A stretch of DNA of 64,000 nucleotides, taken from assembly GCF_004010195.1 (NCBI RefSeq), contig NC_057749.1, positions 12,031,282 through 12,095,281 on the forward strand, read 5' to 3'. The stretch is from Chiloscyllium plagiosum. Lineage: Eukaryota. Under the pieces are notes generated by a model. The model saw only the letters and a list, made by a program, of their open reading frames with translations. It searched no databases and was not told the DNA's origin. This document shows positions 1,365-62,867 of this stretch, in pieces. Made by a program: the position numbers and the translations under genes. Every line of letters starts with the position of its first letter. Within the stretch, counting starts at the first letter, position 1.

Positions 1365-2430
1365 AGACCATACAACATAGGAGCAGAAATTAGGCCATTC
1401 AGCCCATCAAGTCTGCTCCACCATTCAATCATGGCTGATAAATTTCTCAATCCCATTCTCCCATTTTCTCCCCATAACCCTTGATCCCCTTTACAATCAA
1501 GAACCTATCTATTTCTGTCTTAAATATGACTTGGCGTCCACAGCCTTCTGTGAAAGTTAATTCCATAGATTCACCACTCTCAGGCTGAAGAAATTTCTCC
1601 TTTATCTCTGTTCAAAAAGGTCTTTCTTTTAGTCTAAGGCTGTGTCCTTGGGTCCTAGTCTCTACTGCCAATAGAAACATCTTCCCAACACCCACTGTGT
1701 CCAGGCATTCAGAATTCTATAAGTTTCAATCGGATCCCCCCTTATCCTTCTAAACTCCATTGAGTATAGACATAGAGTCCTCAAATGTTCCTCTTATGTT
1801 AAGCTTTTCATTCTTGAGACCATTCCCGTGAATCTCCTCTGAACACGCTCAAGGGCCAGTACAGCCTTCCTGAAATATGGGGCCAAAACCTGCACACAAC
1901 ACTCCAAGTGTGACCTGTCCTATCTGTCCAGCTTCTTTCCCATTTGTCCGCTGCACCCTCCCCTCTGACCTATCACCATTACTCCCACCTCCCTCCAGTT
2001 AAAACGCTCTCACCTTCCTCCCAGCCCTACCCCCACCCCCCTCCCATTTATCTCCCACCCCCTCGGCTCACAGCCTCACTCCTAATGAAGGGCTTTTGCC
2101 CGAAACATCGACTCTCCTGCTCCTCGGATGCTGCCTGACCTGCTGTGCTTTTCCAGCACCATACTCTTGACTCCAAATGTGGCTTGATCAGAGCCTCAGA
2201 AGTACATCCCTGCTTTTATATTCAAATCCTCTCAAAATAAATGCCATCACTGCATTTGCCTTCCTAACTACTGACTCAATCTACAAGTTTAGCTTGAGAG
2301 AATCCTAGACTAGAATTCCCAAGTCTCTTTGCACTTCAGACTTCTGAATTTTCTCCCCATTTAGAAAATAGTGCATGCCTCTATTCTTCCTACCAAAGTG
2401 CATGACCTCTCACTTTCCCACATTGTATTC
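1365..2430 (-). mobile_element. CR1 LINE 3' fragment, interrupted by a PLE terminal fragment
   Basis: CR1 3' tail stem-loop (aggccattcagcccatc) plus degenerate ORF2 C-terminus (PHLE.CVQVLAPYFRK). Confidence 0.8.
1918..2169 (+). mobile_element. Penelope-like element terminal fragment with degenerate hammerhead motif
   Basis: Homologous to the 3' end of the PLE at 25640-25867. Imperfect TSD actccaagtgtgacctg (1901-1917) / actccaaatgtggcttg (2170-2186). Motif ctaatga-agggc-tttt-gccc-gaaacatc at 2082-2109. Confidence 0.8.
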
Positions 2431-2974
2431 TTTAAGCTCAAGATCTAGTACCATTCATGCATCACTGCTCTCCTTTTTGAAGGCACCTGGTCCACCAAAC
2501 ATTCAAGTTTGGCACTCCCATCTATGTGAAACCCTTTGCAATGTTCCAAAGTCTTTGAATTTCTCCAATTCTTGCATCTCCCTGTTAAATTGTTCCCCAA
2601 CTGGTGCCTTTCCATCTCTCCCTCCTCTACACTGACCCTTAAAATATAGCTGTAACTGAATTTGTGGTCATCTGCCCCAATATTTCTGCATTCACTCTGA
2701 AATTTTGATTGTTATTTCTCCTTGATATTTTTATGATGATAACAATGCTATATAAATACAAGTTGGTAATGATGACAACTTCTGAAATATCAAAACATAT
2801 AAAAACACCACAGCTGGAAGGTGTTCAGAACAATATTGGAATTAAGATATGAAATGGGATCAGAAGTGGACCATTAGAAACACGAACAGGAGTAGGTCAT
2901 TCGGCCCCTTAAAGCATGCTCTGCCATTCAGTAGGATCATAGCTGATCCAACATTCCTCACATCCAATTTCCTG

Positions 2975-4172
2975 CAGTACAGGCTCTTCGGCCCTCGATG
3001 TTGTGCCAACATGTGAAACCAATCTGAAGCCCATCGAACCTAAACTATTCCATTCTTGTCCATGTGCCTACCCAATGACCATTTAAAGGCCCTTAAAGTT
3101 GACAAGTCTCCTACTGTTGCAAGCAGGCCGTTTCACATACTTACTACTGTCTGAGTAAAGAAACAATCGCTGACCTCTGTCCTATACTCATCACCCCTCA
3201 ATTTAAAGCTATGTCCCTTCGTGCTAGCCATCACCATCCAAAGAAAAAGGCCCTCACTGTCCCCCTTTCTAACCCACTGATCATTTTGTATGTCTCGAAG
3301 TCATCTCTCAACCTTGTTCTTTCTAACGAAAACAGCCTCAAGTCCCTCAGCCTTTCCACATAAGACCTTTCCTCCATACCAGGCAACATCCTAATAAATC
3401 TCCTCTGAACCCTTTCCAATGCTTCGACATTCTTCCTGAAATGTGACAACCAGAAATGTACGCAATACTCCAAGTGCGGCCGTACCAGAGCTTTGTACAG
3501 CTGCAACATGACCTCAGGCTCCGAAACTCAATCCCTCTACCAATAAAAACTTACACACTGTATGCCTTCTTAACAACCCTATCAACCTGGGTGTCAACTT
3601 TCTGGGATGTGTGTACTTGGATACCAGGTCTCTCTGCTCATCTACGCTACCAAGAATCTTACCATTAGCCCAGTACTCTATTCTTGTTACTCCTTCCAAA
3701 GTGAATCACCTCACACTTTTCCACATTAAACCCTATTTGCCACCTCTCAACCCAGCTCTGCAGCTTATTTATGTCAGTAACCTGCAACATCCTTCAGCAC
3801 TATCCACAACTCCACCAGTCTTAGTGTCAACCGCAAATTTACTAACCCATTCTTCTACACCCACATCCAGGGTGAGCAACAGCCCCAAAACAGATCCTTG
3901 TGGTCCACCACTAGTAACTGAACTCCAGAATGAACATTTCACATCAACCACTACCTTGTATCTCTTGATGCTAGCCAATTTCTGATCCAAACCGCTAATT
4001 CACCCTCAATCCCATGCCTCCATATTTTTGCAATAGCCTACCAAGGGGAACCTTATCAAATGCTTTATTGACATCCATATATGCCACATCAACTGTTTTA
4101 TCCTCATGCACCTGTTTGGTCACCTTCTCAAAGAACTCTAAGGTTTGTGAGGCATGACCTACCCTTCACAAA
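2975..4172 (-). mobile_element. CR1 LINE ORF2 3' part (decayed)
   Basis: ORFs 3231-3509, 3514-3699 and 3769-3990 give LYKALVRPHLEYCVHFW, VTSGGPQGSVLG and VSKFA, typical CR1 RT/C-terminal motifs broken by frameshifts. Confidence 0.9.
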
Positions 4173-4461
4173 ATTAATTTTACACAAGGGCTCTACCTCC
4201 ATGGTTGTTTTTGGCAAGGAGTTGCAAAGACTCCTTACGCTCGGAGAGAGGTTGTTCTTCCTCATCTCAGTCTGAAATTTATTCTGAGACTATGCCCTCT
4301 CGTCCTAGACTTTCCCATGAGGGGAAACATCCTCACAACATTAACTCTGTAAAGGCCCTTAAGAATCCACTATGATTCAATGTGTTCACCTCTCATTCTT
4401 CTATACTTCAGTCAGTAGAGTTCCATCCTATTTAGCCTTTGCTCCTAAGACAATAGACAAT

Positions 4462-5563
4462 AAACAATAGGTGCAGGAGTAGGCCATTTTGCCCTTCGAG
4501 CCTGCACCACCATTCAATATGATCATGGCTGATCATCCTTAATCAGTATCCTGTTCCTGCCTTATCTCCATAACCCTTGATTCCACTATCCTTGACAGCT
4601 CTATCCAACTCTTTCTTAAATGAATCCAGAGACTGGGCCTCCACTGCTCTCTGGGGCAAAGCATTCCTCACAGCCACCACTCTCTGGGTGAAGACGTTTT
4701 TCCTCATCTCTGTCCTAAATAGTCTACCCCGTATTTTTAAGCTGTGTCCTCTGGTTCGGCACTCACCCATCAGCGGAAACATGTTTCCTGCCTCCAGAGT
4801 GTCCAATCCTTTAATAATCTTATACATCTCAATCAGATCCCCTCTGTCTTCTAAACTCAAGGGGGTATACAAGCCCAGTCACTCCAATCTTTCAGGGTAA
4901 GATAGTCCAGCCATTCCAGGAATTGACCTCGTGAACCTACACTGCACTCCCTCAATAGCCAGAATGTCTTTCCTCAAATTTGGAGACCAGATCTGCACAG
5001 AGAGAGAGAGATATGTCAGAGAGATGGAGATGTCAGAGGGAGAGATGCCAAAGAAAGAGAGAGAGAGATGACAAAGTGAGAGCGAGATGTCAGAGAGAGA
5101 GGGAGAGATGTCAGAGAGAGAGAGAGCGAGAGATGTCAGTATATTGGGTCCCAGCACTGATCCCTGCAGTACCCCACTGGTCACTGCCTGCCATTCCGAA
5201 ATAGAGCCATTTATCACTACTCTTTGTTTCCTATCAGCCAACCAACGTTCAATCCAAGTTAGTACTTTGCCCCCAATACCATGCGCCCTAATTTTGCTCA
5301 CTAACCTCCTATGTGGGACTTTATCAAAAGCTTTCTGAAAACTTCCAGGTACACTACATCTACTGGATCTCCCTTGTCGATCTTCAGTTACATCCTCAAA
5401 AAATTCCAGAAGATTAGTCAAGCATGATTTCCCCTTCATTAATCCATGCTGACTCTGACCTATCCTGTTACTACTATCCAGATGTGTCGTAATTTGATCC
5501 TTTATAATAGACTCCAGCATCTTTCCCACCATTGAGGTCAGACTAACTGGTCTATAATTCCCT
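4462..5563 (-). mobile_element. CR1 LINE 3' part with an internal segment replaced by a GA-rich microsatellite
   Basis: KGKSCLTNLLEFFEDVT, FQKAFDKVPH, QGSVLGP and TRGHSLKIRG motifs. Repeat at 4998-5138. Confidence 0.9.
4998..5138. repeat. (GA)n-GATGTCA compound microsatellite
   Basis: Repeated gagagagagatgtca-like units. Confidence 0.9.
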
Positions 5564-5699
5564 CCATCGCAGGAATCATTCTAGTGAGCATCTTTTGAAC
5601 TGTTTCCAAAGAAATTATGTATTCTTTAAGGACAGGGGCAGCAGATACATAGGAACACCACCTGCAAATTCCCCTCCAAGCCCCTCAACGTCCTGACTT

Positions 5700-6395
5700 G
5701 GAGTCGCAGAAATGTTTAGCATGGAAAGAGACCCTACAGTCCAACCTGTCCATGCTGACCAAATATTCTAAATTAATCTAGTCCCATTTTCCAGCATTTG
5801 GTCCATATCCCTCTAAACCCTTCCTATTCATATACCCATCCAGATGCCTTTTAAAGGTTTAATTGTACCAGCCTCCACCATTTCCTCTGGCATCTCATTT
5901 CATACATGCATCATCCTCTGTGTGAAAAAATTGCCTCTCAGGTCCCTTTTTAAATCCTTCCCACTCACCTTAAACCTAAGTCCTCTAGTTTTGGACTCCC
6001 TTCTCCTGGGAAAAAGACCTTGACTATTCACCCTATCCAAGTCTCTCATGATTTTATAAATCTCTATAAGGTCACCCCTCAGCCTCCGACAGTCCAGATA
6101 AAATAGCCCAAGTCTATTCAGCCTCTCCCTGTAGCTCAAACCCTCAAGCTCAAGCAATATCCTTGTAAATGTTTTCTGAACTCTTTCAAGCTTCACAACA
6201 TCTTTCCTACAGCAGGGAGACTAGAATTGCATGCAGTATTCCAAAAGTGGCTTAACCAATATCCTGTACAGCCACTACACGACCTCCCAAATCCAATACT
6301 CAAAACAATGACAAATAAAGATAAGCGTACCAAATGCGTACTTCACTACCCTGTCTACCTGTGACTGGGCTTTCAAGGAACTATGAACCTGCACT
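5700..6395 (-). mobile_element. CR1 LINE 3' fragment nested in an older retroelement end (5630-6590)
   Basis: ORF 5900-6196: LERVQKTFTR..RLRGDLIEIYKIM..NFFTQR. Confidence 0.85.
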
Positions 6396-7220: not shown

Positions 7221-7231
7221 GAGGGGGGGAT

Positions 7232-7370: not shown

Positions 7371-7374
7371 TGCT

Positions 7375-13250: not shown

Positions 13251-13257
13251 ATAAATC

Positions 13258-14058: not shown

Positions 14059-15765
14059 ATTGAATTGAATTGCATTTATTGTCACATGTACTCATGAGTA
14101 CAGTGAAAGGTTTACAAGTTGCCACTTAGTGCCATCTTGGGTAAAAAGGTACCTAGGTACAGAGGAGAAAGTGAGGACTGCAGATGCTGGAGATCAGAGC
14201 TGAAAAATATGTTGCTGGAAAAGCGCAGCAGGTCAGGCAGCATCCAAGGAGCAGGAGAATCGATGTTTCAGGCATAAGTCCTTCTTCAGGAATGAGGAAG
14301 GTGTGCAAAGCAGACTAAGATCAAAGGTAGGGAGGAGGGACTTGGGGGAGGGGCGTTGGGAATGCGATAGGTGAAAGGAGGTTAAGGTGAGGGTGATAGG
14401 CCAGAGAGGGGGTGGGGGCGGAGAGGTCGGGAAGACGACTGCAGGTCAAGAAGGTGGTGCTGAGTCCGAGGATTGGGACTGAGATAAGGTAGGGGGATGG
14501 GAAATGAGGAAGCAGGAAAAATCTGCATTCATCCCTTGTGGTTGGAGGGTTCCTAGGCGGAAGATGAGGCGCTCTTCCTCCAGGCGTCGTGTTGCCATGG
14601 TCTGGCGTTGGAGGAAGCCAATGACCTGCATGTCCTTGGTGGAGTTCAAGTATTCAGCCACAGGTCGGTTGAGTTGGTTGGTGCGGGTGTCCCAGAGGTG
14701 TTCTCTGAAACGTTCCGCAAGTTGGCAGCCTGTCTCCCCAATGTAGAGAAAGCCACATCAGGTGCAGCGGATGCAGTAATGGAGGTGCAGGTGAATTTCT
14801 GACGGATATGGAAGGATCCCTTGGGGCCTTGGAGGGAAGTGAGGGGGGGAGGTGTGGGTGCAAGTTTTGCATTTCTTGCGGTTGCAGGGGAAGGTGCCAG
14901 GAGTGGTGGTTGGGTTGGTGGGGGTGTGTGGACCTGACGAGGGAGTTGCGGAGGGAGTGGTCTTTCTGGAACGCTGATAGAGGAGGGGAGGGAAATATAT
15001 CCTTGGTGGTGGGGTCTATTTGGAGGTGGCGGAAATGACAAAGGATGATACGATGTATCTGGAGGTTAGTGGGATGGTAGGTGAGGACCAGTGAGGTTCT
15101 GTCCTGGTGGCGATTGGAGAGGCAGGGTTCAAGGGCGGAGGAGCGGGAAGTGGAGGAGATGCGGTGGAGAGCATAGTCAATCACGTCTGAGGGGAAATTG
15201 CGGTCTTGGTACAAAGCAGAAAAATAAAGAAAACAAAGTCAAAAGTTAAACATTACAGTCCTTATTAAAATAGTTGAAAAACAAGGAAACACAGTTACGA
15301 GTTCAACAACATAGTCTCTATAAGCACCTGGCCATGCTGGCCTTGTACTCCTCCACAATGGCTCAACCTCTCCCCACTGATGCCACGGGCTGTCTGTTCC
15401 AGCTCCCGCCCTTGCTGTTGCCCGCCCTGAGCTGCCCCCTCCCGCTCTCGCTGCCGTCCGCCCGCTCCCACTCTCACCATCTGCAGTCCCCAGGACACCG
15501 GCTGCCCTGGGTCACTCCCTCCCTCTCTCGCCACCATCCACCCCAGGCCAGCTGCCTTAGGATAATTGCCAGAGGCCAGAGACCTTTTTTTGCTGTCATG
15601 TTGGGCATGCCCTCCCCGTGCTGGCTTAATCTCCTCCATAATGATTTCCCCCTCACTGCACAAACTCGTACCTTGCACAAGGTAAAAAGATTATAAATTA
15701 AGAAGAAAAAGCGAAAGAATAAAAAAGGCAGATGGAACAGATGGGCCACAAGGAGGAGCCCTCAC
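14059..15765 (-). mobile_element. Unclassified retroposon-like element with (TTCAA)n tail, split by a PLE
   Basis: Minus strand ends AATAAATGCAATTCAATTCAAT (14059-14080). Sequence is continuous across the PLE TSD. GC-rich body at 15330-15640. Confidence 0.4.
14162..15207 (-). mobile_element. Penelope-like element (Neptune type), 5'-truncated: RT C-terminus, Cys linker, GIY-YIG endonuclease, terminal repeat
   Basis: DRNFPSDVIDYALHRISS, GTFPCNRKKCKTCTH, GETG..LAERFREH and RRLEEERLIFRLGTLQPQGMN. TSD ggtaca at 14156-14161 and 15208-15213. Confidence 0.9.
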
Positions 15766-22995: not shown

Positions 22996-23640
22996 AAAAA
23001 GATGCTCATTTAAATATTGTTTTTCTCATCTTCCTGCCAAAGTAGACAAACTCACATTTTCCATGCTGTACCTCATAGGTCAATTTTTCCCCGCTCGCCT
23101 AACTTATCTATATCCCTTTGTAGACTTTTTACCTGGTCTTCACAAATTACATTCCTACCTATTGGAGTCATCAGAAAATGTAGCAATCGTACATTTAGTT
23201 CCTAGATCTAAGCCATTGATGTACACTGTAAATTGCTGATGCCTCCACACAGTGGCACTCCATCTATTATATCTCACTAATCTACGTATGATCCATTTAT
23301 GTTTCTTGTTAACTAAATTTTTTTTCTCTATTTGCAACCCCTCTTCCCCATAGGCCTGATCTCTTAATTTGCTCAAATTCTATCTTGCAAATTAACTTCT
23401 ATAGTTTTGTGCAATTAGTTACAAGAATGAGACTGGAAGTGAATATGTCTGCATTCTCCTACTCAAACTAAACAGAGCAATGAAATTATTTACATTTTTG
23501 AATTCGCCACACTGTGTTACAATGACAGATGTCTGACAATATAACAGGTCAGTTTATCCTCGAGCACAAGTATTACAAGATGTCCACATAATTATATCAA
23601 TTATGCAATCAATTCTTAGTTGAATCATGAAAAGTTTAAA

Positions 23641-23860
23641 AACAAAAACAGAAGTTGCTGGAAAAGCTCAGCAGATTTGGCAGCATTTGTGAAGAGAAAT
23701 CAACGTTAACATTTTGGCTCTGGTGACCCTTCCTCAGAAGCCGGGGCTGAAATGCTAACTTTGATTTCTCTTCACAGATGCTGCCAGAACTGCTAAGCGT
23801 TTCCACCAATTTCGGTTTTGTTTATGATTTACAGAATCTGCAGTTCTTTCGGTTTTCCTT
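23641..23860. mobile_element. Fold-back pair of PLE-terminal sequences (family C) with degenerate hammerhead
   Basis: Arms gaagttgctggaaaagctcagcagatttggcagcatttgtgaagagaaatcaa / ttgatttctcttcacagatgctgccagaactgctaagcgtttccaccaatttc. Minus-strand ctgagga-agggtc..aaaatgtt near 23708-23737. Confidence 0.7.
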
Positions 23861-24251: not shown

Positions 24252-24454
24252 NNNNNNNNNNNNNNNNNNNNNNNNNNNNNNNNNNNNNNNNNNNNNNNNN
24301 NNNNNNNNNNNNNNNNNNNNNNNNNNNNNNNNNNNNNNNNNNNNNNNNNNNNNNNNNNNNNNNNNNNNNNNNNNNNNNNNNNNNNNNNNNNNNNNNNNNN
24401 NNNNNNNNNNNNNNNNNNNNNNNNNNNNNNNNNNNNNNNNNNNNNNNNNNNNNN
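24252..24454. other. Assembly gap (N run)
   Basis: Run of Ns. Confidence 1.
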
Positions 24455-25463
24455 ATCTCGGGCGACCGAATCAACATGGACATTTACTATAAACCGACCG
24501 ACTTCCACAGCTACCCAGACTACACCTCCTTCCACCCTGCCCCCTGTAAAAACGCCACCCCATATTCCCAATTCCTTCGTCTCCGCCGCATCTGCTCCCA
24601 GGAGGACCAGTTCCAATACTGTACAACCCAGATGGCCTCCTTCTTCAAAGACCGCAATTTCCCCCCAGACGTGATCGACGATGCTGTCTACCACATCTCC
24701 TCCACTTCCCGCTCCTCCGCCCTTGAGCCCCGCCCCTCCAACTGCCACCAGGACAGAACCCCACTGGTCCTCACCTACCACCCCACCAACCTCCATATAC
24801 ATCATATCATCCGACGTCATTTCCGTCACCTCCAAACGGACCCCACCACCAGGGGTGTATTTCCCTCCTCTCCCCTATCAGCGTTCCGAAAAGACCACTC
24901 CCTCCGTGACTCCCTCGTCAGGTCCATACCCCCCACCAACCCAACCTCCACTCTCGGCACCTTCCCCCGCCACCCCAAGAAATACCAAACTTGCGCCCAT
25001 ACCTCCCCCCTTACTTCCCTCCCAGCCCCCTACTTCCTTCCAAGGTCCCAAGGGACCCTTCCATATCCGCCATAAATTCACCTGCACCTCCACACACATC
25101 ATTTACTGCATCCGCTGCACTGGATGTGGCCTCCTCTATGTTGGGGAGACAGGCCACCTACTTGCGGAACGTTTCAGAGAACACCTCTGGGACACCCGGA
25201 CCAACCAACTCAACCACCCCGTAGCTCAACACTTCAACTCCCCCTCCCACTCCACCAAGGACATGCAGGTCCTAGGACTCCTTCATCACCAGACCATAGC
25301 AACACGACGGCCGGTGGAAGAGCGCCTCATCTTCCACCTAGGAACCCTCCAACCACAAGGGATGAACTCAGATTTCTCCAGTTTCCTCATTCCCCCCCCC
25401 CCCACCTTGTCTCAGTCCCAACCCTTGAACTCAGCACCACCTTCCTAACCTGCAATCTTCTTC

Positions 25464-25634
25464 NNNNNNNNNNNNNNNNNNNNNNNNNNNNNNNNNNNNN
25501 NNNNNNNNNNNNNNNNNNNNNNNNNNNNNNNNNNNNNNNNNNNNNNNNNNNNNNNNNNNNNNNNNNNNNNNNNNNNNNNNNNNNNNNNNNNNNNNNNNNN
25601 NNNNNNNNNNNNNNNNNNNNNNNNNNNNNNNNNN
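25464..25634. other. Assembly gap (N run)
   Basis: Run of Ns. Confidence 1.
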
Positions 25635-25757
25635 TCCCCACTCCGGCCTATCACCCTCACCTTAACCTCCTTCCACCTATCACATTTCCAACGCCCCTCC
25701 CCCAAGTCCCTCCTCCCTACCTTTTATCTTAGCCTGCTGGACACACTTTCCTCATTC

Positions 25758-25785
25758 CTGAAGAAGGGCTCATGCCTGAAACGTC
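25758..25785 (+). ncRNA. Minimal hammerhead ribozyme motif (PLE-type, family A)
   Basis: CTGAAGA-A-GGGC-TCAT-GCCT-GAA-ACGT-C. Confidence 0.75.
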
Positions 25786-27179
25786 GATTCTCCTGCTCCT
25801 TGGATGCTGCCTGACCTGCTGCGCTTTTTCAGCTCTGATCTCCAGCCTCTGCAGTCCTTACTTTCTCCTGAGAAATGCTCGGGTCAAGAATATTGGACAG
25901 TGCTCTTTTGTTTCATGAATCATACACCTTTATAGCTTTATCTTAGGTGTTCTATAATCAAACTATTACTCATTTCCAAATAGAAATAATGGAACTTTTT
26001 ATTGACCATAACACTAGGTTTTATCTTGAAGTAAAAATGAGTTCAAAATGATTTAAATGTGGTCATTATTTGAAAAAAGTGACAACTTATTTTGTTTGTT
26101 GACCAATCATTGAGAAAAATAAAATTGATGAGTGATTCTTTTACATAATGAAAACAAAGAGTCTGGCATTTGCACAAACAAAAATCTGCAACTTTCCTTC
26201 GAGCTCTCCTGTTCAATGTTGAACTGTTTCACCTTGTCATTAATTTCATACTAATTACATGTATTTGGAAAGGAATCAATACAGAGTGGGTGAATCAGGT
26301 GATGAAATAGACTCAGTGGAGCTGCCAAGCTGCTCAGATTTTTAAAAAAATGTTTAGTGCATATGAGGGACACGAAGAACCTAACTCCAATTTGCAAATC
26401 AGAAGCTGCGATACTGCAATAATAGAAGAGGTTTCAAGTAATCAATATTTGAACACCAAAGAATCTCAGTATTGTAAGCCATCCATTTCATTGCTTTAAC
26501 CTAATTGCTGTACTCCAATTTCTCCATTTGCAGCTTCATTCCTGATTTGTCTATCTTTACATCTACCAAAAGCCTGATGTCTGGTGTTAAGCCACCCCAG
26601 TTGTATTCTGCTTTGGACTGTGTGCATGGTGTGGAGGAGTGTAATGGTCATTCAGCGCTCCACGCTCATGTTCTGGGTATTTAGGTTCAAATCCCATCAT
26701 GGCAGAATGTGAAATTTGAACTTAATAAAATTGAGAATTAAAATCTTGCTTAATGGTGGTCATGGGGTGAATCATACTAAAAATTGGCAAAGTGAGGGCT
26801 TCTCTCTACAAAGCTGAATAAGTTTTCTCATGCTTTTATCCCAAATTTGTTTCATTGACTGGATACTATGCCTCAATGCCATCTCTCACATTCTATACTA
26901 ACCAAATTCTCCAACTCAGATTGGATTAGCCACAGGAAATGAAAGGTTATAGGGAAAGAGTGGGTCTGGGTAGGAAGCTCTTTGGAGAGTCAGTGTGGTT
27001 GCAATGCATTGGTGAATAGTGAATACATTAGACTAGATTTGGGGAAGTATAGGTAGATTGCTACTTTACCTGGAAGGTGTGTCTGGGGCTTTGGATACTG
27101 AGGAGAGAGTAGGCAAACAAGCATTAACAATCTTACAGTCAACGAATAATCACTGTACGCAGCTCTTATTTACTGAAAA

Positions 27180-28459: not shown

Positions 28460-28590
28460 CTTTGAGGAGAAAGTGAGGTCTGCAGATGCTGGAGATCAGA
28501 GCTGAAAATGTATAGCTGGAAAAGCGCAGCAGGTCAGGCAGCATCCAGGGAACAGGAGAATCGACGTTTCGGGCATAAGCCCTTCTTCAG
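28460..28590 (-). mobile_element. 131-bp PLE-terminal element carrying an intact hammerhead motif
   Basis: 13-bp TSD gaaagtggcatat (28447-28459, 28591-28603). Matches the PLE 3' end. Confidence 0.88.
28563..28590 (-). ncRNA. Minimal hammerhead ribozyme motif (family A)
   Basis: CTGAAGA-A-GGGC-TTAT-GCCC-GAA-ACGT-C on the minus strand. Confidence 0.78.
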
Positions 28591-31295: not shown

Positions 31296-33145
31296 AAATT
31301 ATCAGCATTCAATTTCTTTTTTTTCTTGGTCCTCTTATTTATTTGACAAAAGTCTAACAAAAAGCCAGGATATGCACAAAACATTTCCTGTCTTCGTGTT
31401 ATTTTGTACTTCCAGGATCACAAAGTTTGATCATTGCAACACAGTCAATTATTTGCAATTCCTTCACTATTACAGCATAAATACTTTGAAACAGAAAAGC
31501 ATTTTGCAAAGGATTTAGTCCAGTGGGTTGAGCATTCAGTTTCTATCAAGTTGATGCAGAACGGGAGCTTGAATCTTAATAGAGTGGGATTAGGTAGTAA
31601 TGATGGTCATAAAGAGCAATAATCCATGGTAAAAGGGCTTTCACTGCTCACAAGTGAAAATCTTGTTTTGATGTCTGGAGCTTAGCAAGAGATGCAATCT
31701 TTTGACTCACTATCAAGAAAAGACTTCCTGCACATTTCTCCCAATTCCCCAACATATATCTTTCCATAGCCCACACCATTCAGATCTGAGAAGATTCCAC
31801 ATTATGTAATGACTATCATAAAATCCTATTAGATACACTAATATCCTTTAGCCGTAACCATTTAGGGAAGAACATCTGCCTTCCTTCTTGGCTTGGTCTA
31901 CATGTGACTCCAGAACCACAGCTATGTGGTCAACAGTCCTCTGCAATGCCTGATCAGTTCTAGGACAATTAAGCATTGTTAGCAATACCCCCATCCCATG
32001 AAATAACAAAAGAAAAGGCTATTTGTGCCACATTTCACATCATATTCCTCTTTCTAGAGTTAATCTTATTACCCTGATTCAGAACAATTGGGCAATTGAG
32101 ATAATTGAATATTTTATTCACTGTATCGCAATATCCAGAATTACAGAGTTTGCTCTTGTCTGGCTTGCTATCCCTGTGTTGTAACACTACCAAACATCTG
32201 TGGTTTTACAGAAATCTCTGTGATTCATAAAATAAATATTAGAACTGCTTTAATTTACTATGTGACAATTATTATTGCAAAATTCAAGTTATGAACAAAA
32301 GGAGGTGTACTGGAAGTTAAGGAGGGAGTGAGTAAAGGCTAACTGCATTGTGTGCTTACTTTCTGGTATCAAACCCAGCAATTGTCATCATGTAGTAAGG
32401 TTTCACTTATTGTATTCTAAGTTGCCAAGAGATTTAGTAAGGTGACCAGTTCACTGCCCTCAACATTAATGAACCTGTTTAAAATTATAACAACCTGTTA
32501 ATTTTGGCCATTTGTTCCTGAGGCAGCCTTTAAATTAGCAGGTTATTAAATTACATTTGACTGCTTGACAGCAAAAGTGGTTTCTAATCTATGGCAAAAA
32601 ACTTGAACTGCTTTAAGAGGCCATCTGTTGGCAGTGGATTTGTCCTTACCTCTGGACTGAAAGACCCAGTTTCAAGTCCCAACTGCACTAGAGGTATGTA
32701 GTAACATCTTTAAACAGGTTAATTAGAAAACAAAAATCCACATTAGGGTTGAATTGCTATAAATGCCGGATTTGTAGGATTGCATTAAAATGGTAATAAA
32801 GGGAGAAGGAGAAACAAAATATCAGTGATATAAGATAGTCTTTGGAGCTTTTTTTGAAATTAAAAGAGCATCTCTCATTTCCAGCTTGAAAAGTAGATAT
32901 TGAATTTGAGCAAGGGATGAGGAGTAAATCAGGGGGGTGGGTGGGAGTGTAGGGGGAAGCATAAGTTGCATGCTGCAAAGTAACAGCTAGATTACTAAGC
33001 TATAGTGGGTTGAAGCTATGGACACTAAATTATTTGCTAGAGGATAAGGACCCACTGGAGCTAGGCAAAGACAAAATGGCATGGGTTGGCTCTTTCTGAA
33101 TATTTGTGGAGCAAAGTGAGGAATGACTGATAAGGATTCTGGTGA

Positions 33146-33347
33146 GCTGAAAATGTGTTGGAAAAACACAGCAGGTCAGGCAGCATCCAAGGAGCAGGAG
33201 AATCGACGTTTCGGGCATGAGCCCTTCTTCAGGAATCCCCAAAACGTTGATTCTCCTGCTCCTTGGATGCTGCCTGACCTGCTGCGCTTTTCCAGCAACA
33301 CATTTTCAGCTCTGATCTTCAGCATCTGCAGTCCTCACTTTCTCCTC
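33146..33347. mobile_element. Fold-back PLE-terminal element (family A) with hammerhead
   Basis: Perfect 14-bp TSD aaggattctggtga (33132-33145, 33348-33361). Inverted arms meet at about 33237. Confidence 0.9.
33205..33232 (-). ncRNA. Minimal hammerhead ribozyme motif (family A)
   Basis: CTGAAGA-A-GGGC-TCAT-GCCC-GAA-ACGT-C on the minus strand. Confidence 0.78.
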
Positions 33348-43495: not shown

Positions 43496-44088
43496 AAACC
43501 GGTTAATGTTCAAGGCCCGCCTCTTGAGATTTTCTTCAATAGTTGAAGACTGAATGACTGTCTTTGGCATTAAGATTACATTTGACTGAATATGGCTTCA
43601 AGGAACCCAAGCAAAACTGGAGTCAAGGGGATAGAGGGGAAAACTTTCTGCCAGATGGAGTCATACTGAGCATAAAGAAATATGGTTATAGTTGTTTAAG
43701 GTCAATCATAGAACATCACTGCAGGAGGTTCTCATGATGGTGTCCTAAAGATCTAACATTTTCAACTGCTTTTATTAATAATCCACCCTCCATCGTAAGA
43801 TTAGAGGTAGGGATTTTTAATTAATTATCATACAACATTCAGAACCATTCTGAACTCCTCAGATACTGAAGCAGTTTATTCAATTCAGCAAGATCTGGAT
43901 AATGTCTAGGCCTGGGTCATAAGTAACAAATAACATTTGTGTCAGACATACTAGACAATGACCATCTCCAACGAGAAAGCATTCAACCATCACCCCTTGT
44001 CATTAACATTTGTAATATTCCTTAGTAAGTAAGTACCTGATGCAGAGTCTGAATTCTTCTGAATGCTGAACATTTAGAGCTTTCAGTC

Positions 44089-44309
44089 AAAGTGTGGTGC
44101 TGGAAAAGCACAGCTGGTCAGGCAGCATCCAAGAAGCAGGAGAGTCAGCGTTTTGGTCGTACGCTCTTCCTCAGGAATGTGATGAAGAGTTTATGCTCGA
44201 AACGTCAGCTGTCTTGCTCCTCGGATGCTGCCTGGCTGGCTGTGCTTTTCCACTGCTGTACTTTTTGACTGATTTTCAGCATCTGCAGTCCTCACTTTCT
44301 CCTATTTGA
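44089..44309. mobile_element. Fold-back PLE-terminal element (family A variant) with two hammerhead remnants
   Basis: 11-bp TSD agctttcagtc (44078-44088, 44310-44320). Plus-strand gtgatga-a-gagt-ttat-gctc-gaaacgtc at 44179-44206. Confidence 0.85.
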
Positions 44310-47410: not shown

Positions 47411-48169
47411 ATTTTTATCCCTTTCTGTAAACTGTCAAAAACTCTACATCCAGAAATGTTGAGCTGCATCTTTGACCCTTGTTAAGCTAAATTTCTGTTA
47501 AATCAATGAAAATCATGCTGCAATGTGTACACAGCTCTTTGGCTTCGTACTTTTACATATATACTTGAATATTGCCAAGTTCTTGTGCTGTGTATATTTT
47601 AATCTTTGCTGTCTTCTGTCACTAAGTTTCTGCCTCCTGTTCCCTGCTCTGAATTTGCCTACTGATTCTCATCCTCTATAAATCTAGATTCAATCCTCCC
47701 CACCATACTATCTTCACCTTAAAGCACAAATCATACAGAGTGAATCAAAAGTCCAACCTTGTTGATTTACAGACCCAATTTTATATTCGTATAAATGAAA
47801 GGATTGAGTAAATTAAAATCTTCGGTCAGTGTCCCACAACAATACAACAAAGAAAAATTAGGTGTACAACGTAACTATATAGTATAAATGGCCCTACCTG
47901 ACCTGGGACAGTTTGATGCTGACTCAGAGTTTAAGGGGTTGGGAGTGAAGGTGTAGAAGGATTCCAATCCCCAGCATCGACACTCACCTTAAAATGGGAC
48001 AAATCAATGACTATGTCAGCAGATTGTCTAATTACTACAGTAAAAGTTTTGTTCAAACATTTGGCAGTCCAAAGACTAAAATGATGCATTGTTGGTATTT
48101 TTTGGTTAACCTCTACTCATTCAGATAGTTACCAGGTAAAAAGCTAGACATCGATTAGGAGGTGCGGAG

Positions 48170-53875: not shown

Positions 53876-55246
53876 TTAAATAGACCTGTTTCCTCTTTCC
53901 CTGCGCTGAAGCTCTTCTTTGTAACAGTAAGAGCAGTAAAATTCTGTCTCCGGACTGCCGTAGAAGGGGCAGTTGTGCTGTTTGCATCGGTTTTGTTGTA
54001 GGAAATAGGGAGGAGCCGCCATAATTCGCCCTTTGGTTTGCTCTCCACTTTGCCACACCGAGGAAACACCCTCGTCTGCATATTCCAAGTAGCCATTAAC
54101 ATCGCTTGGACCAAATCCATTGGTAAATGTGTGGCTTTTATGTTCAGGGGGCAGCAAATGCTTCAGAGGTTCCATGGTTTCTACAGTAGGAAATCTTGAA
54201 AGACCCACAGGACAGTAATTTTGATAAGACAGTGAGTGACTATGCTGCGGATATGTTGCGCATGTTTTCAGGGAGCCAATGACAGGTGGCTGAATGTCAA
54301 TTGGGCAGTTTGATGATGGAGGTTTAATCTCAGACACATGGATGACATGCCGCAACAAAGCTGGCGTGTGTGTAAAGTGGGCAGAGGTGAGTGTGCCGGT
54401 CTTAGGGATTTCATTTCTGAGGGGTGAATTGGTCTCTGTTGCTTGACCACTCCTTCTTTGTGTTTTTGAGTTCATCAAATCCATATGGCTTTGAGAAGAA
54501 CCTTGTAGAGTGTCCACCTGAGGATTTGGTTCCACCTTGCTTCTCTCAGATGGTTCATGTTCCATCTTTTTACATGTGGAGTTACTGGAAGCTTTTTTCT
54601 CTGCCTCTTTGCGTTTTTGCTCCTGCTCTGCATTGAAGCGTTCCTGAGCAGTAGACAAGTAATAATTAATCATTTCCTCGTGAAACTGATGCCTATGGCT
54701 AGTCAACAGAAGTCCAGCAAAAATGAACTTCCTCTCTCCTTGCATAGCAGCTCTCAATATGCTGAGGCTGAGTTTGACATCAGTGCTGTACTTGCACTGA
54801 TCAGCTGGTTTATCCGTTGGAACTTTAACAGAGGTAATATTTGACTTGTCAGTAGGTGATGAACTTGATTGCAATGACTCATCTTTACTCCCTTTATTAG
54901 ATTTATTGGATTCTTTTTTCTTGCCTTTCTCCACATTCTCCCCATTGCGCCCATTGCTTGAATTTCCTTTGCTGATTCTTCCATGTACTAATCCTCCGAA
55001 TCCTCCCATGTTCTTCTTTATTTTAGTCCCCAGGGTTTTACTAAAACTCCCGAGTTTGTTTGCAACAGAGTCTGTCCTGTTCTTTTCCTTCTTTTGTTTA
55101 TCTCCTTTATCTTTCTCTTTCTGGTTTTTGTGTCCATTCAGATTAGAGTTGCTGCAGATGGAGTCTCTGTCTGACTCGGAGTCAGACAGTGAATGGGCAT
55201 CTTCCCCTACTGAACCAGTTGGTGATTCTGGCTGGGCCAAAGGTGC
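53876..55246 (-). CDS. OTUD7A: OTU deubiquitinase 7A (Cezanne-2), last coding exon with A20-type zinc finger
   Basis: Acceptor AG at 55248-55247, phase 0. APLAQPESPT..DSVANKLGSFSKTLG..KYSTDVKLSLSILRAAMQGERKFIFAGLLLTSHRHQFHEEMI..RCKQHNCPFYGSPETEFYCSYCYKEEL..*. Confidence 0.95.
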   Translation of the reverse strand, partial: APLAQPESPTGSVGEDAHSLSDSESDRDSICSNSNLNGHKNQKEKDKGDKQKKEKNRTDSVANKLGSFSKTLGTKIKKNMGGFGGLVHGRISKGNSSNGRNGENVEKGKKKESNKSNKGSKDESLQSSSSPTDKSNITSVKVPTDKPADQCKYSTDVKLSLSILRAAMQGERKFIFAGLLLTSHRHQFHEEMINYYLSTAQERFNAEQEQKRKEAEKKASSNSTCKKMEHEPSERSKVEPNPQVDTLQGSSQSHMDLMNSKTQRRSGQATETNSPLRNEIPKTGTLTSAHFTHTPALLRHVIHVSEIKPPSSNCPIDIQPPVIGSLKTCATYPQHSHSLSYQNYCPVGLSRFPTVETMEPLKHLLPPEHKSHTFTNGFGPSDVNGYLEYADEGVSSVWQSGEQTKGRIMAAPPYFLQQNRCKQHNCPFYGSPETEFYCSYCYKEELQRRERGNRSI

Positions 55247-55997
55247 CTGTGAGTACAAACAATTCATAACTAGCCTAATAAAATTTATAGTATTATACAA
55301 AACTATTAGAATATAACAAAGTATTTTATATTAAAACCTGACTGCTGTAATAGTTTTGTCTTGCAGTATTATCCAGTGCCTCACCCAAATTACATGTAAG
55401 ACAATAAGCGGCATATGGAGGTTTGACCATAGACAGACTCAACCGTGAAACTCGGCATCTATACACAGACAGTCTAATAGAAACCAGTAGTGAATAATCA
55501 GCAGATAATTTCTTTCCTTTAGTCGAAGGGTTTTGAGACCAATTGTGAAATGCCAACCAAATATGTAGCGGAATTGAGCTAATTAAACACAAATAGGTCA
55601 ACTGAACCTGTGATCTTCCTATTTTGCATAGCTCATGTACTTCAAATCACATTGCTAACAGCAATAACATAAATTAAGTAGATTTAAAGCAAACAGCCTG
55701 GAAACCCCACTATGCAAGATGGCACAAATACCAAATACAAACATAGCAAGGTCTTTTTTTCATTTTTTGGAGCTATTAATTCACTCATAATAAATAGGAT
55801 AACACTACTATTGAAAACAGACATGGTTTTACAATTAATATACATGTTTTCACAATGGTATTGCTCAGGGAATTTGGAAAAAAATATGCATTTTTATAAT
55901 CTCTGTTGTATAGCATCATTGAAGTTATACTTTACAAGTCACATAAATCACAGCAGAAAATATTGCCCTTGCACTTTAAAAGCAGGAAATACTTTAC

Positions 55998-56249: not shown

Positions 56250-56605
56250 ACTGGCTTAATAGTTAGCACTGCTGCCTCTCAGAACTAGGGACAGAGGTTG
56301 GTTCCAGCCTCCGGTGACTGAGTGGAGTTTGCATGTTCTCCCCGTCTGCCTAGGTTTCTGCTAGGTGCTCTGGATTCCTCTCACAGTCCAATCATATGGT
56401 TAGGATTGACCATGCTAAATGCAGGTTTAGGGAGATAGGGTAGGACTGAAAAATGTGTTGCTGGAAAAGCGCAGCAAGTCAGGCAGCATCCAAGGAGCAG
56501 GAGAATCGACATTTCGGGCATAAGCCCTACTTCAAGGGTAGGGTCTGGGTCTGGCTGCAGACTAGATAGGCCAAATGGCCTCTTTCCGCACTGTAGAGAG
56601 TTTAT
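56250..56605 (+). mobile_element. Degenerate V-SINE in OTUD7A intron, with a PLE-terminal insertion
   Basis: gttagcactgctgcctc..gtggagtttgcatgttctccc..ggccaaatggcctctttcc. Confidence 0.75.
56445..56534 (-). mobile_element. 90-bp PLE-terminal element with mutated hammerhead
   Basis: TSD agggtagg (56437-56444, 56535-56542). Minus strand tgaagt-a-gggc-ttat-gccc-gaaatgtc. Confidence 0.82.
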
Positions 56606-58144: not shown

Positions 58145-60850
58145 AGAAAACAAGCAGAATTTATACAACATCTTTTGCAACTCCAGATGTCACAACACAT
58201 TAAAAAACTAGCTCATTGCCTGTAAAGAAAAAATAGATTTTTAAATACTACAACAAATACAAAACAATGCAATTCAAAACAGTACAAAAATAGTACAAAA
58301 CTAAACCCAAATAATAAAAAAAATCTCCAACCCACTCTCCTATACAAATGTATAAACATATATAGAGAAGTATAAAATTTTAAAAAAACCTAAACTAGCT
58401 ATTGAACTAAATAAATAAATACCTAACAACAAACAAATAAATAGTAATAACTCAGCCCAGCCAAACAAAACACTCATACATTCACAGTTCCTCCTCCCTG
58501 GATATTGGACTCATGAAACACAATCGTTACGACTTTATAAAAGCCCTTGTTAGTGTGGCAGATAAATCTGTGTCCAGGTATTTCAAAAAGGGTTGCCATG
58601 TCTTGTAAAAATTCTCAGTTTTGTGGTGTACCATATTTGTGAGAAAATCCAGGGAAATATGCTCCATAACAATCTTCCGCCAACCCGACAGGCCTGGGGG
58701 GTTTTCGGATATCCAACCTAGCAAGATATTCTTCCTTGCACAGAATGTAAGAATGTTGAAAAGTTTTGCCTTATGCGCGTCTGCAGGAAATACAATGGTA
58801 GGCCCAAAAGGAGCGAAATAGGGTCCTTCCCCACCCCTACACCTAAAATCCTCTCCACTGCACCCACCACAGCGCTCCAATAGGTTTGAAGCCTGTCACA
58901 AGACCAAAGACAATGGTTAAGAGTGCCCATGCAGATTTGGGATATGCTGAAGATATTTAAATTTTAACAAACGGTCTGGGGCTAAGTGGACCCTGAGGAG
59001 AATCTTCAACTGTAAAGCATGGGTCCTATTGCAAATTGATATCTTCCTTGCATTCTCCCAAATATCCTCCCATGCCTCTGAAGAAACTTCAACGCCCAAC
59101 TCTCTCTCGCACATCTTGCAGAGTCGATCAGACTCATCTGAGGTGGGACCCCCCAATTGGTGATATAAAGTACTGACAGAGAGTGTACTCTTAGCCCTTA
59201 ATACCCCTCTTTCTATGTCAGATTGTAGGGATCAGTCAAAAGTGTGGTCTTTTTTTGAATAAAATCCCTAACTTGAAAAAAACAAAAGAGGTCTCTATTA
59301 GATAACTCGTACTTCCGTACTAACTGATTGAAGGACATCATTACGTTTCCCTCAAATAAATCACTCATGCAAGTATTACTCCGAGCTGCCCGACGTTTAA
59401 ATCCTGAATCTATCATACACGGTTGAAAACCCGGCATACCCACTAAAGGTGTAAACAAAGATGTTTTGCCAATATTACCTTCCCTCTGCCAAATTGCCCT
59501 CCTTGCTTTAACAGTATTGATGACTATTGGATTATGGCAATATTCCCCAACTATCCTCACCTTGTCCAAAAACAGCAAACTGGTAAGGGGGCACCTTGCC
59601 TGGGAGGATTCGATATCTAGCCATACTGAAAGAGGGTCCCCACAAACCCAATCATTCACGTAGGTCAAAAGCGAGCTTAATTGGTAATTTTTAATGCCCG
59701 GAAGGTCTACTCCCCCCAATTTGTGAGGCAACTGCAGTTTGGCTAATTTAATGAAGGGCCGTTTACGGTGCCAGATAAAGGAGCTGAACCAACCATTCAG
59801 TCTCCTGAGTGTTTGTTTATTGAAAATCAGGGGGAGCATCCGTATAGGGTATAGCAAACGAGGGAGAATATTCATCTTAATAAGCACTATCCGACCCAAC
59901 CACTAGACTGGAAGTGCCTCCCATCTTTGGAGATCTTGTTTAATTATTTCAAATAATTGAGTAAAATTGGCTTTGAACAGGCAAACCAGAACTGGAGTAA
60001 TGAATATGCCCAAATACACAAAACTCCCCTGTGACCACCTAAATGGGAATCTATAGTCACTCTCAAGAGGCAACTCTTTCGTAAGACCTACCCATAGGCA
60101 TAGCCTCTGATTTAGCAAAATTAATATTATACCCTGAAAAAGCACCAAACGCGTGAATGCATTGTATCAGGCAAGGCACTGAGACTGCTGGATTCGTCAA
60201 GAAAATTAGAACATCGTCTGCATACAGCGAGATCTTATGTAATTTTGACCCCACTTCTGGAGCTGATATATTGAGATCCCCACAAACGTCCTCTGCCAAC
60301 AGTTCAATCACCAACGTAAAAAGTAATGGTGAAAGGGGACAGCCCTGCCGGCTGCCCCTAGAAATATTAAAATTGCTTGATTGTACCCCATTGGTAATGA
60401 CTGCCGCGAGAGGTACACTGTAGAGAATCTTTACCCATCTTATGAAAACTTTGCCCAGACCAAACCGGTCTAGAGGTTCCCAGACCTTTCCCTAATCACT
60501 GTAATGATTTGTGCGGCACTTCTCTTTCTGGCAAGGTATGCTAAGAATGAGCTAGTTTTGAAGTACCGAGATAGTTAAAATGCCTGAAACATGGCTTCCA
60601 ATTTGTCTCACAAATACAATATAACGCTGAGCAGATAATTTGTTTTTAAGTAGTGTTAATTGAGGAATTAATATTGTGTCAGGCCATTGGAAAGAGCTCC
60701 ATGACTCTTCTTGGAATAGTCCCATGTGCTATTTTCCAGGGCAGATAAGACCTTAGTTTAAATCATTCCACCAGGCAATACATTTGATAGTACAGGTACA
60801 ACACTCTTGAGTCCCACATTGGAGTGTCCTCAATTCCCTGCTGTGGGGCA
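58145..60850 (-). mobile_element. DeuSINE split by an L1 (head/core about 60546-60850, tail about 58145-58205)
   Basis: Minus strand ..aaactaaggtcttatctgccc..actattccaagaagag..aaacaaattatctgctca.. and tail gacatctggagttgcaaaagatgttgtataaat. Confidence 0.55.
58225..60475 (-). mobile_element. L1-clade LINE, 5'-truncated ORF2 (RT YADD to CCHC region), frameshifted
   Basis: GCPLSPLLF, KISLYADDVLIFL, FVYLGIFIT, GRIVLIKMNILPRLLYP, GTLNHCLWSC. Confidence 0.92.
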
Positions 60851-61362
60851 TGAACCCATGACGTTCTGATGTCGTGACAAGAATACCACCTACTGAAGAA
60901 GCCTGACACCTTGGTACATTCTGAAATACTGAATAAATACACAGACAGTACTTTGAGGAAGGTCCAGTGCCATATGGTGATAACAGCACATGCACAGTTG
61001 AAATGTTCCTCATTTAGACTGCAAGGCCTCAGACAACCACACATCACTTTTTATAAAATCTTTTGTTAAATTGGCAATCACTTGTCAATGGATATGATTG
61101 TCCGCCTACGAAATTCCATGTCATTGGTCATAGGTTCTGTGGATGATGAGCCCGATCCTGTGGCTACATTTCCATCCACACATTTGCAGGTGTTTTTGGA
61201 AGGTTGAAGTGCTTTTGGCTTTAAGATCGACATTCATTTTTCCAGTCCCTTTTCCGTACTTCCACTTGCTGACAGGATTTGGAGATGTCTGTGTTGGACT
61301 GGAGTGTATAAAGTTAAAAATCATACAATATCAGGTTATAGTTGAACAGGTTTACTTGGAAG

Positions 61363-61397
61363 CACTAGCTTTCGGAGCGCTGCTCCTTCATCAGGTG
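61363..61397 (-). ncRNA. Minimal hammerhead ribozyme motif (family B), intact
   Basis: CAC-CTGATGA-A-GGAGC-AGC-GCTCC-GAA-AGCT-A-GTG: helix I CAC/GTG, 5-bp helix II, palindrome AGCT. Confidence 0.85.
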
Positions 61398-61774
61398 GTT
61401 ATGGAGTATAAGATTGTAAGACACAGAATTTATAGCAAAAGTTTAGTGTGATGCAACTGAAATATATTGAAAAAGATCTGGATTGTTTGTTAAGTCTCTC
61501 ACCTTTTAGAGTGACCATGTCAGTTTTAGTTCTTTCATATGTAAATCACAAAGTTTTTTTAAAAGTTACATTCTCAAGTGAACTTTAACACTTAGTGTCA
61601 TGTTGGCCCAGACAATGCACTGAAGGTGTTAGCTCCCTGTCTGAGGCTGTCTGTGCCACAATGGTCAGACTGATTCTAAACTAAAAAACGGATTTACAGA
61701 ATCTTACATGGATTCATGCAGTTTTTGAGCAAAGTAAGATGTAATTCTGCAAGTACAAATTCACTCCAAAACAT

Positions 61775-61776
<2 letters not shown>

Positions 61777-61819
<43 letters not shown>

Positions 61820-61826
61820 CGCGCGC
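61777..61826. repeat. (GT)17(GC)8 microsatellite
   Basis: Read directly from the sequence. Confidence 0.95.
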
Positions 61827-62486
61827 GGGAGGGGAATAGGAGTGTCTGTGAGAGTGTGTGCGTGTGTAAAGGGGTGTAAGTCTGTGAGAGGGTGTGCGTG
61901 GGAATGTATGTATGTGTGAGCGTATGAGAAACATTCTACATGAGTGTCTGTGTCTGTTGGAGAGCAAGGATGTGTGTGTGTGTAGGTAGAAGTGTCTGTG
62001 TCTATAGACAGACAGACACTCACACATACAGTGTACACTGCCACAGACACCCTCTCACAGACTTATACCCCTTTACACTCACACACTCATAACCACCTCC
62101 CCCTGTCCCACGCACACACCCACATGCACATATACATATTTAAGTTTGTGGGGTGAATTTGTATTTTAAGAACTAAATTTTACTTTGCTGAAAAACCGCA
62201 TGAATCCATGTAAGATTCTATACATTTTTTGGATGAGAATCAGTCTGACAATTGGTGGCACAGACAAGCTCACACAGGGAAACTCACACCTTTAATACAT
62301 TATCTGGGCCGACATGACACCAATTGTTAAAGTTCACTTGAAAATGTAACTTCTAAAAAAGACATTTTGCAATTTACATATTAAAGAACTGAAACCGACA
62401 TGATCATTCTAAAAGATGAGAGACTTAACAAACAACCCAGGTCTTTTTCAATATATAATTTCAGTTACATCACACTATAAACTTTT

Positions 62487-62798
62487 GCGGCACAGTGGCT
62501 CAGTGGTTAGCACTGCTGCCTTGCAGCGCCAGGGACACCGGTTCGATTCCAGCCTCGGGCGACTGTTTGCGTGGAGTTTGCATGTTTACCCTGTGCCTGC
62601 GTGGGTTTCCTCCAGGTGCTCCAGTTTCCTCCCACAGTCCAAAGATGTGTTGGTCAGGTGAATTGGCCATGCTAAATTGTCCATAGTGATAAGTGCATTA
62701 GTAGGCAGTAGGTGCGTGGGTTACTCTGAGGGTTGGTGTAGACTTGTTGGGCCAAAGGGCCTGTTTCCGCACTATAGGAAACTAGTCTAATCTAAAAA
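62487..62798 (+). mobile_element. HE1-type V-SINE inserted in the right arm of the fold-back element
   Basis: gcggcacagtggctcagtggttagcactgctgcc..gtggagtttgcatg..gggccaaagggcctgtttcc. Confidence 0.88.
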
Positions 62799-62832
62799 AA
62801 CCTCCGAGTCTTATAGTCTTATTCTCCACAGC

Positions 62833-62867
62833 CACCTGATGGAGGAGCAGTGCTCTGAAAGCTAGTG
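62833..62867 (+). ncRNA. Hammerhead motif (family B) with one core substitution
   Basis: CAC-CTGATGG-A-GGAGC-AGT-GCTCT-GAA-AGCT-A-GTG. Confidence 0.7.

Follow-up and report, generated by a model that had tools for sequence, protein, structure and literature searches.

The DNA analyzed here, which we refer to as the window, is a 64,000-nt stretch of the Chiloscyllium plagiosum genome (NC_057749.1, positions 12,031,282 to 12,095,281 of the forward strand), and it carries ten dispersed sites that resemble the core of a hammerhead ribozyme. Seven of these sites (2082, 14262, 25758, 28563, 33205, 44179 and 56508) lie in copies of one repeat family, which we call A, and the remainder in family B or in family E, a relative of A; the longest family A copy also holds part of an open reading frame (ORF) with a GIY-YIG endonuclease domain (Table 1). 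We consider it highly probable (about 0.88) that the motifs are minimal type I hammerheads (min-HHRs) carried in the terminal repeat of Penelope-like elements (PLEs). This class of motif was published in 2014 (PMC4209133), and the present catch is of that known kind. An initial annotation of the sequence had proposed minimal hammerheads of about three families at these ten positions; every one is present, and the window does hold family A with its subfamilies, family B and the A-related family E. That annotation had missed both that the carriers are PLEs and that the window copies are dead fragments.

The strict pattern CTGANGA-N8-25-GAAASSTH fits four of the ten sites (25758-25785(+), 28563-28590(-), 33205-33232(-) and 61366-61394(-)), against a mean of 0.11 matches in 100 dinucleotide shuffles of the window, none of which attains four. 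A stricter descriptor, in which the core must come with H17, with a palindrome that begins with A and with no fewer than 3 bp in helix II, recovers the identical four sites and finds nothing in the reversed window or in any of 50 shuffles. Even among these four intact-core copies, one (28563-28590) has target DNA as the 5' strand of its helix I. The remaining six sites are damaged copies of the same repeats, in which a core base, part of helix II or III or the 5' end has been lost (Table 1). Helix III has decayed at its CpG in some of them, from ACGT to ACAT or ATGT; these changes, like that from GCCCG to GCCTG, are CpG transitions. The window copies are best read as dead insertions that decay neutrally, mainly by such transitions. 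At 25777, for example, T is the derived state, because reads and contigs of other copies mostly show C there, and the variants that reach at least 10% of mapped reads within the family A motif fall at N7, in loop II and at two CpG sites. A covariance model built for family A finds eight A-type copies in the window, including an extra partner arm at 44137-44183(-), and neither B copy; it acts as a sequence model.

Table 1. Hammerhead-bearing copies and the features tied to them in the window. Scores in bits are from the family A covariance model.
Feature	Position	Strand	Details
Longest family A PLE fragment: 3' part of ORF, ~310-nt spacer, motif, 3' tail	24641..25869	+	Matches 14163-15214 inverted (84-92%); the two long copies have >1 kb in common
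N runs at the longest family A fragment	24252-24454; 25464-25634		203 nt, just upstream; 171 nt, inside
Stop-free frame, 257 aa, with GIY-YIG domain; C-terminal part of PLE ORF	24675..25448	+	
Family A1 motif, C3 to H17	25758..25785	+	CTGAAGA-A-GGGC-TCAT-GCCT-GAAA-CGT-C; 69.4 bits; core intact; 10.1-11.1 pair G.U through CpG decay; predicted cut after 25785
Second long family A copy	14163..15214	-	57.6 bits; degenerate motif 14262-14289 (helix II GGAC/GCCT with broken pair; ACAT)
Solo family A1 insertion, 131 nt, from C of CTGA (28590) to long-tail end	28460..28590	-	13-bp target duplication ATATGCCACTTTC at 28591-28603 and 28447-28459
Head-to-head family A1 insertion	33145..33347	-	Target duplication CACCAGAATCCTT at 33348-33360 and 33132-33144; arm 33145-33236 with intact motif 33205-33232 and short 3' end; inverted arm 33242-33347 breaks off within the hammerhead and bears the long tail
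A3/A4-type family A copy, extends upstream of 2074	2074..2157	+	55.8 bits; flank GACTCTCC; degenerate motif 2082-2109 (G5 to A; ACAT replaces ACGT)
Family A1 copy truncated at TGAAG, short 3' end	56445..56534	-	50.1 bits; target duplication CCTACCCT; motif remnant 56508-56535 without C3 (target-site DNA in its place, the insertion beginning at TGAAG), A9 to T, ATGT
Old head-to-head A4-type insertion	44089..44309	.	Target duplication AGCTTTCAGTC at 44078-44088 and 44310-44320; + arm with tail and motif 44179-44206 (C3 to G; helix II GAGT/GCTC); - arm with motif within 44137-44183; arms score 30.6 and 23.6 bits
Head-to-head pair, family E	23640..23823	.	Degenerate motif 23708-23737(-), CTGAGGA-A-GGGTC-ACCA-GAGCC-AAAA-TGT-T; G12 to A; one helix II pair broken
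Family B copy with long tail	61273..61850	-	Intact motif 61366-61394 (strict and stricter descriptors), CTGATGA-A-GGAGC-AGC-GCTCC-GAAA-GCT-A; predicted cut after 61366 on the - strand
Family B copy, opposite orientation, short 3' end	62110..62920	+	Degenerate motif 62836-62864 (A9 to G; 10.1-11.1 G.U)

Searching the whole genome (3.56 Gb in 101,977 contigs) with the strict pattern gave 231,176 matches, compared with 9,629 for the reversed pattern, which bears out the very large genome-wide count that had been extrapolated from the window. This density amounts to about 65 strict matches per Mb, and four per 64 kb is therefore typical of the genome. Family-specific patterns matched 41,780 times for A1, 6,915 for B, 3,230 for E and 17,398 for a further family, D, of which the window has no intact copy. 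When 100 strict matches were listed and classified by eye, about 75 were A-type, 14 B, 8 D and 1 E, and 2 were unclassifiable.

We tabulated helix pairs with our own script because a MAFFT alignment across the families was structurally inconsistent. In their commonest forms, families A, B, D and E retain the core boxes CUGANGA and GAAA together with H17, and all 43 descriptor hits from the window and 33 genome loci have a single unpaired base after A9 (A in families A, B and E; U or C in D). Helix II is GGGC/GCCC (4 bp) in A, GGAGC/GCUCC (5 bp) in B and GGGUC/GACCC (5 bp) in E; in D it spans seven positions, as GUUACCU/AGGUAAU in D1 and, with the fourth pair mismatched, as GUC(A/G)CCU/AGGGGAC in D2/3. 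The G10.1-C11.1 pair is present in A, B, D2/3 and E, and D1 has G.U instead. Helix I is GA/UC plus one more pair past a U.U mismatch in A1, GAAU/AUUC in A2, GUG/CAC in B, UGG/CCA in D1 and UGC/GCA in D2/3, and its contiguous pairs number two in A1 and E, three in B, D1 and D2/3 and four in A2. Helix III is ACGU in A, D and E and AGCU in B. The core is thus retained across families whose flanks cannot be aligned, within helices I and II that differ yet stay paired.

Some of these differences are double changes. Between D1 and D2/3, a U-A pair in helix II is replaced by C-G and a G-C pair in helix I by C-G. Within family A, the compensated A4 form of helix II, GAGC/GCUC (G-C to A-U), has 473 pattern matches, and an exact 26-nt backbone recurs in 84 of 100 among the matches listed. 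The same backbone carries an A-C mismatch in 170 copies, G.U in 180 and GGGC/GCCC in 1,882, and independent decay would be expected to yield about 16 doubles. This compensation is one event, and it is of the kind that the initial annotation predicted. Because core and pairing are kept across families and a compensated subfamily exists, we infer from these comparisons that the motif was under selection in the source elements. The proposal of selection on RNA structure is supported in this way; part of the variation first cited for it is CpG decay. The paired helix II variants occur as had been listed, but GCCT is a decayed GCCC and not covariation, and GAGT/GCTC is a decayed member of the GAGC/GCTC subfamily. 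Other details had been described just as we find them, including the free core position N7 as A, T or G, the loops TTAT, TCAT, TTTT and AGC and the helix III palindrome ACGT or AGCT.

The link to PLEs comes from the longest family A copy, in which the motif lies ~310 nt downstream of the stop-free frame. The 257-aa translation of this frame matches the Pfam GIY-YIG model at E 7e-4 and 20.3 bits, under the cut-off of 22.6, and the domain was matched in four of four family A ORF copies scanned (three of them from genome loci), in every case sub-cut-off, at E 7e-4 to 0.012. Residues 124-236 of the frame share 49% identity (E 1e-33) with the C-terminus of P0002, an 894-aa protein that has both RVT_1 and a GIY-YIG domain, the latter clearing the Pfam cut-off. 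A reverse transcriptase (RT) followed by a C-terminal GIY-YIG endonuclease is the canonical PLE architecture (PMC8557442). Searching the genome with the 257-aa frame returned at least 153 matches from 183,132 first-look candidates.

Several other candidates for PLE coding sequence were rejected. Open frames of 900-1,050 aa at three genome loci looked like full-length RT elements and proved to be N runs, which read as open in six frames; such runs, 2.0-2.4 kb long, lie at several genome loci where the PLE ORF is expected, and they mimic long ORFs whichever of the six frames is read. A scan with NCBIfam gave nothing useful. In the window, ORFs with RVT_1 at 4879-5580(-) and 60063-60491(-) and with Exo_endo_phos at 10604-11092(+) are not demonstrably PLE, and the second of these has no similarity to P0002. 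We take the endonuclease type of the 10604-11092(+) fragment to suggest long interspersed nuclear elements (LINEs), and all three are probably LINE remnants.

Family A is shared beyond one species label, because contigs from runs labeled as two other organisms (A and C) contain the same element, compared over window positions 25640-25900, at high summed depth and with the same common variants. Separately, one repeat protein of the genome has its closest named relative in a bamboo shark, at 54% identity.

The insertions themselves have the form expected of PLEs, whose hallmarks are strong 5' truncation, a neighboring copy that is inverted and likewise 5'-truncated, and a tail of 30-40 bp at one end (PMC8557442); the tail and the priming on both strands have been reproduced in vitro for an Anolis element (PMC11167929). 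We fetched eight genome loci by the exact family A motif, and most of the copies there are short. A second, inverted arm abuts the motif copy at five of the eight (L002, L003, L005, L007 and L008), and four of these five paired loci (all except L003) have target duplications of 10-15 bp; overall, target duplications range from 8 to 15 bp. In L002, L005 and L008 a short 3' end (...CATTTTCAGCT) closes the arm with the motif, and the inverted arm, where complete (L002, L005, L007 and L008), is about 38 nt longer (...CCTCACTTTCTCC). In L003 the tail is on the motif-bearing arm instead, and the corresponding arm of L007 breaks off a few bases past the cut site. Family B is laid out alike, with its own short end and 38-nt tail; loci L025 and L030 are inverted pairs, and the two B copies in the window form a head-to-head pair flanking a (GT)n tract (61770-61850). 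The combination that characterizes insertions of endonuclease-bearing (EN+) PLEs (truncation, inverted copy, one-sided tail and target duplication) was found at 33145-33347, 44089-44309 and 28460-28590 in the window and at L002, L005, L007, L008, L025 and L030.

Taken together, these features suggest that several PLE families reached very high copy number in this shark-type genome. Family A is linked to a GIY-YIG ORF; B, D and E are placed with PLEs by motif type and insertion architecture. The motif lies ~75-115 nt from the element's 3' end, and PLE insertions are usually 5'-truncated; most fragments would therefore retain it, giving about ten per 64 kb. In active source elements the motif would be selected, and the window copies are best read as inert. 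By analogy with published PLE work, the element RNA may be cut 3' of H17, the ACGU or AGCU palindrome joining two copies, an element protein assisting, or both. PLE hammerheads are described as cleaving slowly as dimers or with protein, and a C3G/G8C double mutant restores cleavage (PMC4209133, PMC11167929).

Where the short family A units begin bears on how they arise. In 48 family A copies from the window and genome loci that were not selected for the motif (reference 25636-25869), the start falls within -8 to +2 nt of C3 in 24, between -20 and -9 in none, inside the motif in 9 and after the cut site in 4, and 11 extend further upstream. This distribution indicates that the common family A unit begins at the 5' edge of the motif and not at the cleavage site. 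The same start is seen in seven of the eight fetched family A loci. The short units may therefore be non-autonomous elements, comparable to retrozymes that lack long terminal repeats (non-LTR retrozymes) or to Sm-alpha, which resembles a short interspersed element (SINE), that use PLE machinery, perhaps with a circular RNA stage, and a preprint argues for an origin of animal retrozymes in PLE terminal repeats (10.64898/2026.07.22.740005). We regard this as possible and rather improbable. The window contains no head-to-tail tandem arrays of the unit; same-strand copies are more than 2 kb apart, and only inverted pairs are adjacent. No back-joined unit (3' end to 5' end) was seen among the mapped reads. 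The 11 of 48 copies that reach upstream run into ORF-bearing sequence, which makes the short and long forms one family. Reverse transcription begun in an upstream terminal repeat of a full-length RNA could also give the same start.

A separate short template RNA could likewise account for the unit start. It is conceivable, though improbable, that the dominant unit reflects a defined RNA of ~80-125 nt, with its 5' end 3-5 nt before C3, and not random PLE truncation. If so, the hammerhead would be a 5'-terminal template module that could set the RNA end or bind an element protein, and would be no processing site at H17. The genome, with more than 200,000 copies, would then exceed every other known natural reservoir of a single ribozyme motif and would lend itself well to working out the role of the hammerhead in PLEs.

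Several observations weigh against reading the motifs as PLE hammerheads. The RT domain is not visible beside the family A copy of the window, where N runs lie, and the ORF link covers family A, with B, D and E placed by motif type and insertion architecture. Rfam hammerhead families (Hammerhead_1, _3, _II, HH9 and HH10) were matched neither in the window, at the gathering score or at E up to 10, nor on stretches of 91 and 101 nt around two intact copies; such models presuppose a true helix III. No RNA data set is listed as containing the stretch. Read ends pile up nowhere, the predicted cut (25785/25786) included, in one single-cell polyA run of 1,825 reads, a weak detector of cleavage ends. 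In nearest-neighbor folding, the double-hammerhead dimer has -5.9 to -17.7 kcal/mol and never comes out as the dimer of minimum energy, which says little about a fold reliant on tertiary contacts. Helix I of family A1 has only two contiguous pairs, as weak as first estimated (about 2 bp), and published PLE hammerheads cleave poorly in vitro (PMC4209133). In the polyA run, coverage is about equal in the two orientations and 95% of what mapped continues into unrelated sequence, so the coverage looks like passive read-through; as a weak test, the run argues against abundant processed RNA from the window copies in that sample.

The weak helix I, the lack of an Rfam hammerhead match and the lack of read ends at the cut site are also what one would expect if the motif were an inactive hitch-hiking look-alike, kept for another function such as a protein-binding or RT recognition site. 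Work on the Anolis element could be taken in the same direction, in that hammerhead mutants left in vitro insertion unaffected and its published account reports no RNA-seq ends at the cut, and other PLE clades are described as thriving without the motif (PMC11167929, PMC8557442). We nevertheless find this unlikely, given that at least four families with unalignable flanks share the core boxes, G10.1-C11.1, the palindrome and pairing in helices I and II, and that cleavage by PLE hammerheads, including the C3G/G8C rescue, has been shown.

It is very improbable that the head-to-head insertions are fold-back elements or small-RNA hairpin precursors with an incidental likeness to hammerheads: inverted pairs are common genome-wide and Rfam microRNA families do match at 33175-33278 (mir-1253) and 23688-23774 (MIR1886), but these matches, at 41.5 and 24.8 bits, are far under the gathering scores of 103 and 62 and arise because head-to-head arms form long near-perfect hairpins, solo and long ORF-bearing copies bear the same motif, and the arms are unequal with a tail on one, as in PLE insertions. 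Such arms are a likely source of false microRNA calls in this genome.

Minimal hammerheads were defined in PLE terminal repeats by Cervera and de la Pena in 2014 (PMC4209133), with G10.1-C11.1, a palindromic 15.2-16.2 or loop 3 and consensus families rich in compensatory changes as recurring features; PMC6765202 describes further work on them by Lunse, Weinberg and Breaker (RNA Biol 14:1499). Our motifs share with those of PMC4209133 the type I layout, the CUGANGA and GAAA boxes, one unpaired base at 9/10.1, G10.1-C11.1, a short helix I and a palindromic helix III of 2-4 nt that implies action as a dimer, as well as the occurrence of thousands of mostly solitary copies in consensus families, with few in full elements and some in opposite-strand pairs. 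They differ in number, with 231,176 matches here against ~4,000 in coelacanth and ~9,000 in Xenopus, called 'remarkable' in that paper, counted with different descriptors. Helix II is 4 bp in family A, in contrast to the 6-8 bp stressed there, and is 7 in family D. Cartilaginous fish are absent from the main text of that paper. In a 2026 preprint (10.64898/2026.07.22.740005), the sampling for retrozymes and PLEs covered one chondrichthyan. Our literature search found no paper on the hammerheads of shark PLEs; the supplements of these two works may list such families.

The Poseidon element PAc of Anolis carolinensis (Mob DNA 2024, PMC11167929) combines RT, GIY-YIG and a hammerhead, as we propose here. 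Its genomic tail is explained by internal initiation at two nearby sites, and both DNA strands are cut and extended, which would yield the head-to-head arms seen in our insertions; its report, like our reads, describes no RNA-seq ends at the cut site. In PAc, however, hammerhead and ORF start overlap where the terminal repeat meets the ORF, whereas here the motif follows the stop codon by ~310 nt and opens the common short unit. Non-LTR retrozymes and SINE-like units (Sm-alpha; axolotl and Xenopus; PMC7229834, 10.64898/2026.07.22.740005) are likewise short, non-coding and of type I, with an evolution linked to PLEs, but they form head-to-tail tandem arrays and have canonical hammerheads with loop-loop contacts, whereas the present copies are dispersed, solo or inverted, and minimal. 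In the dimeric hammerheads of newt satellite 2 and avocado sunblotch viroid (Forster et al. 1988, in PMC6155905), helix III is too short for a monomer, as here, and a palindrome lets two copies form an extended helix III. Those motifs have a true, looped stem of 1-2 bp and follow one another in tandem on a single RNA, whereas close same-strand copies are rare here.

These results reveal no new kind of RNA. What they describe is a shark-type genome with very many PLE minimal hammerheads. With at least four helix designs and compensatory changes both between and within families, it provides a ready data set for tests of covariation in min-HHRs. In half of the family A copies the sequence starts at the motif's 5' edge, 3-5 nt ahead of the CUGA box, an observation relevant to what the ribozyme does for PLEs. 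Annotation should treat both the motifs and the microRNA-like hairpins that inverted arms form as PLE fragments to be masked.

The window also holds sequence outside the hammerhead families. A stop-free frame of 484 aa at 53876-55330(-) has at its end a zinc finger of the A20 type (Pfam zf-A20, E 1.5e-7; ZFAND5-like in PDB) and is probably a large exon of a host gene, so PLE fragments may lie in or near a gene. Other dispersed repeats, unrelated to the hammerhead families (D1-D7, D10-D11, D16 and D20 in our repeat numbering), fill much of the window, at positions that include 3142-3516, 6032-6325, 29147-29885, 35398-36111, 38162-38753 and 48162-49282.

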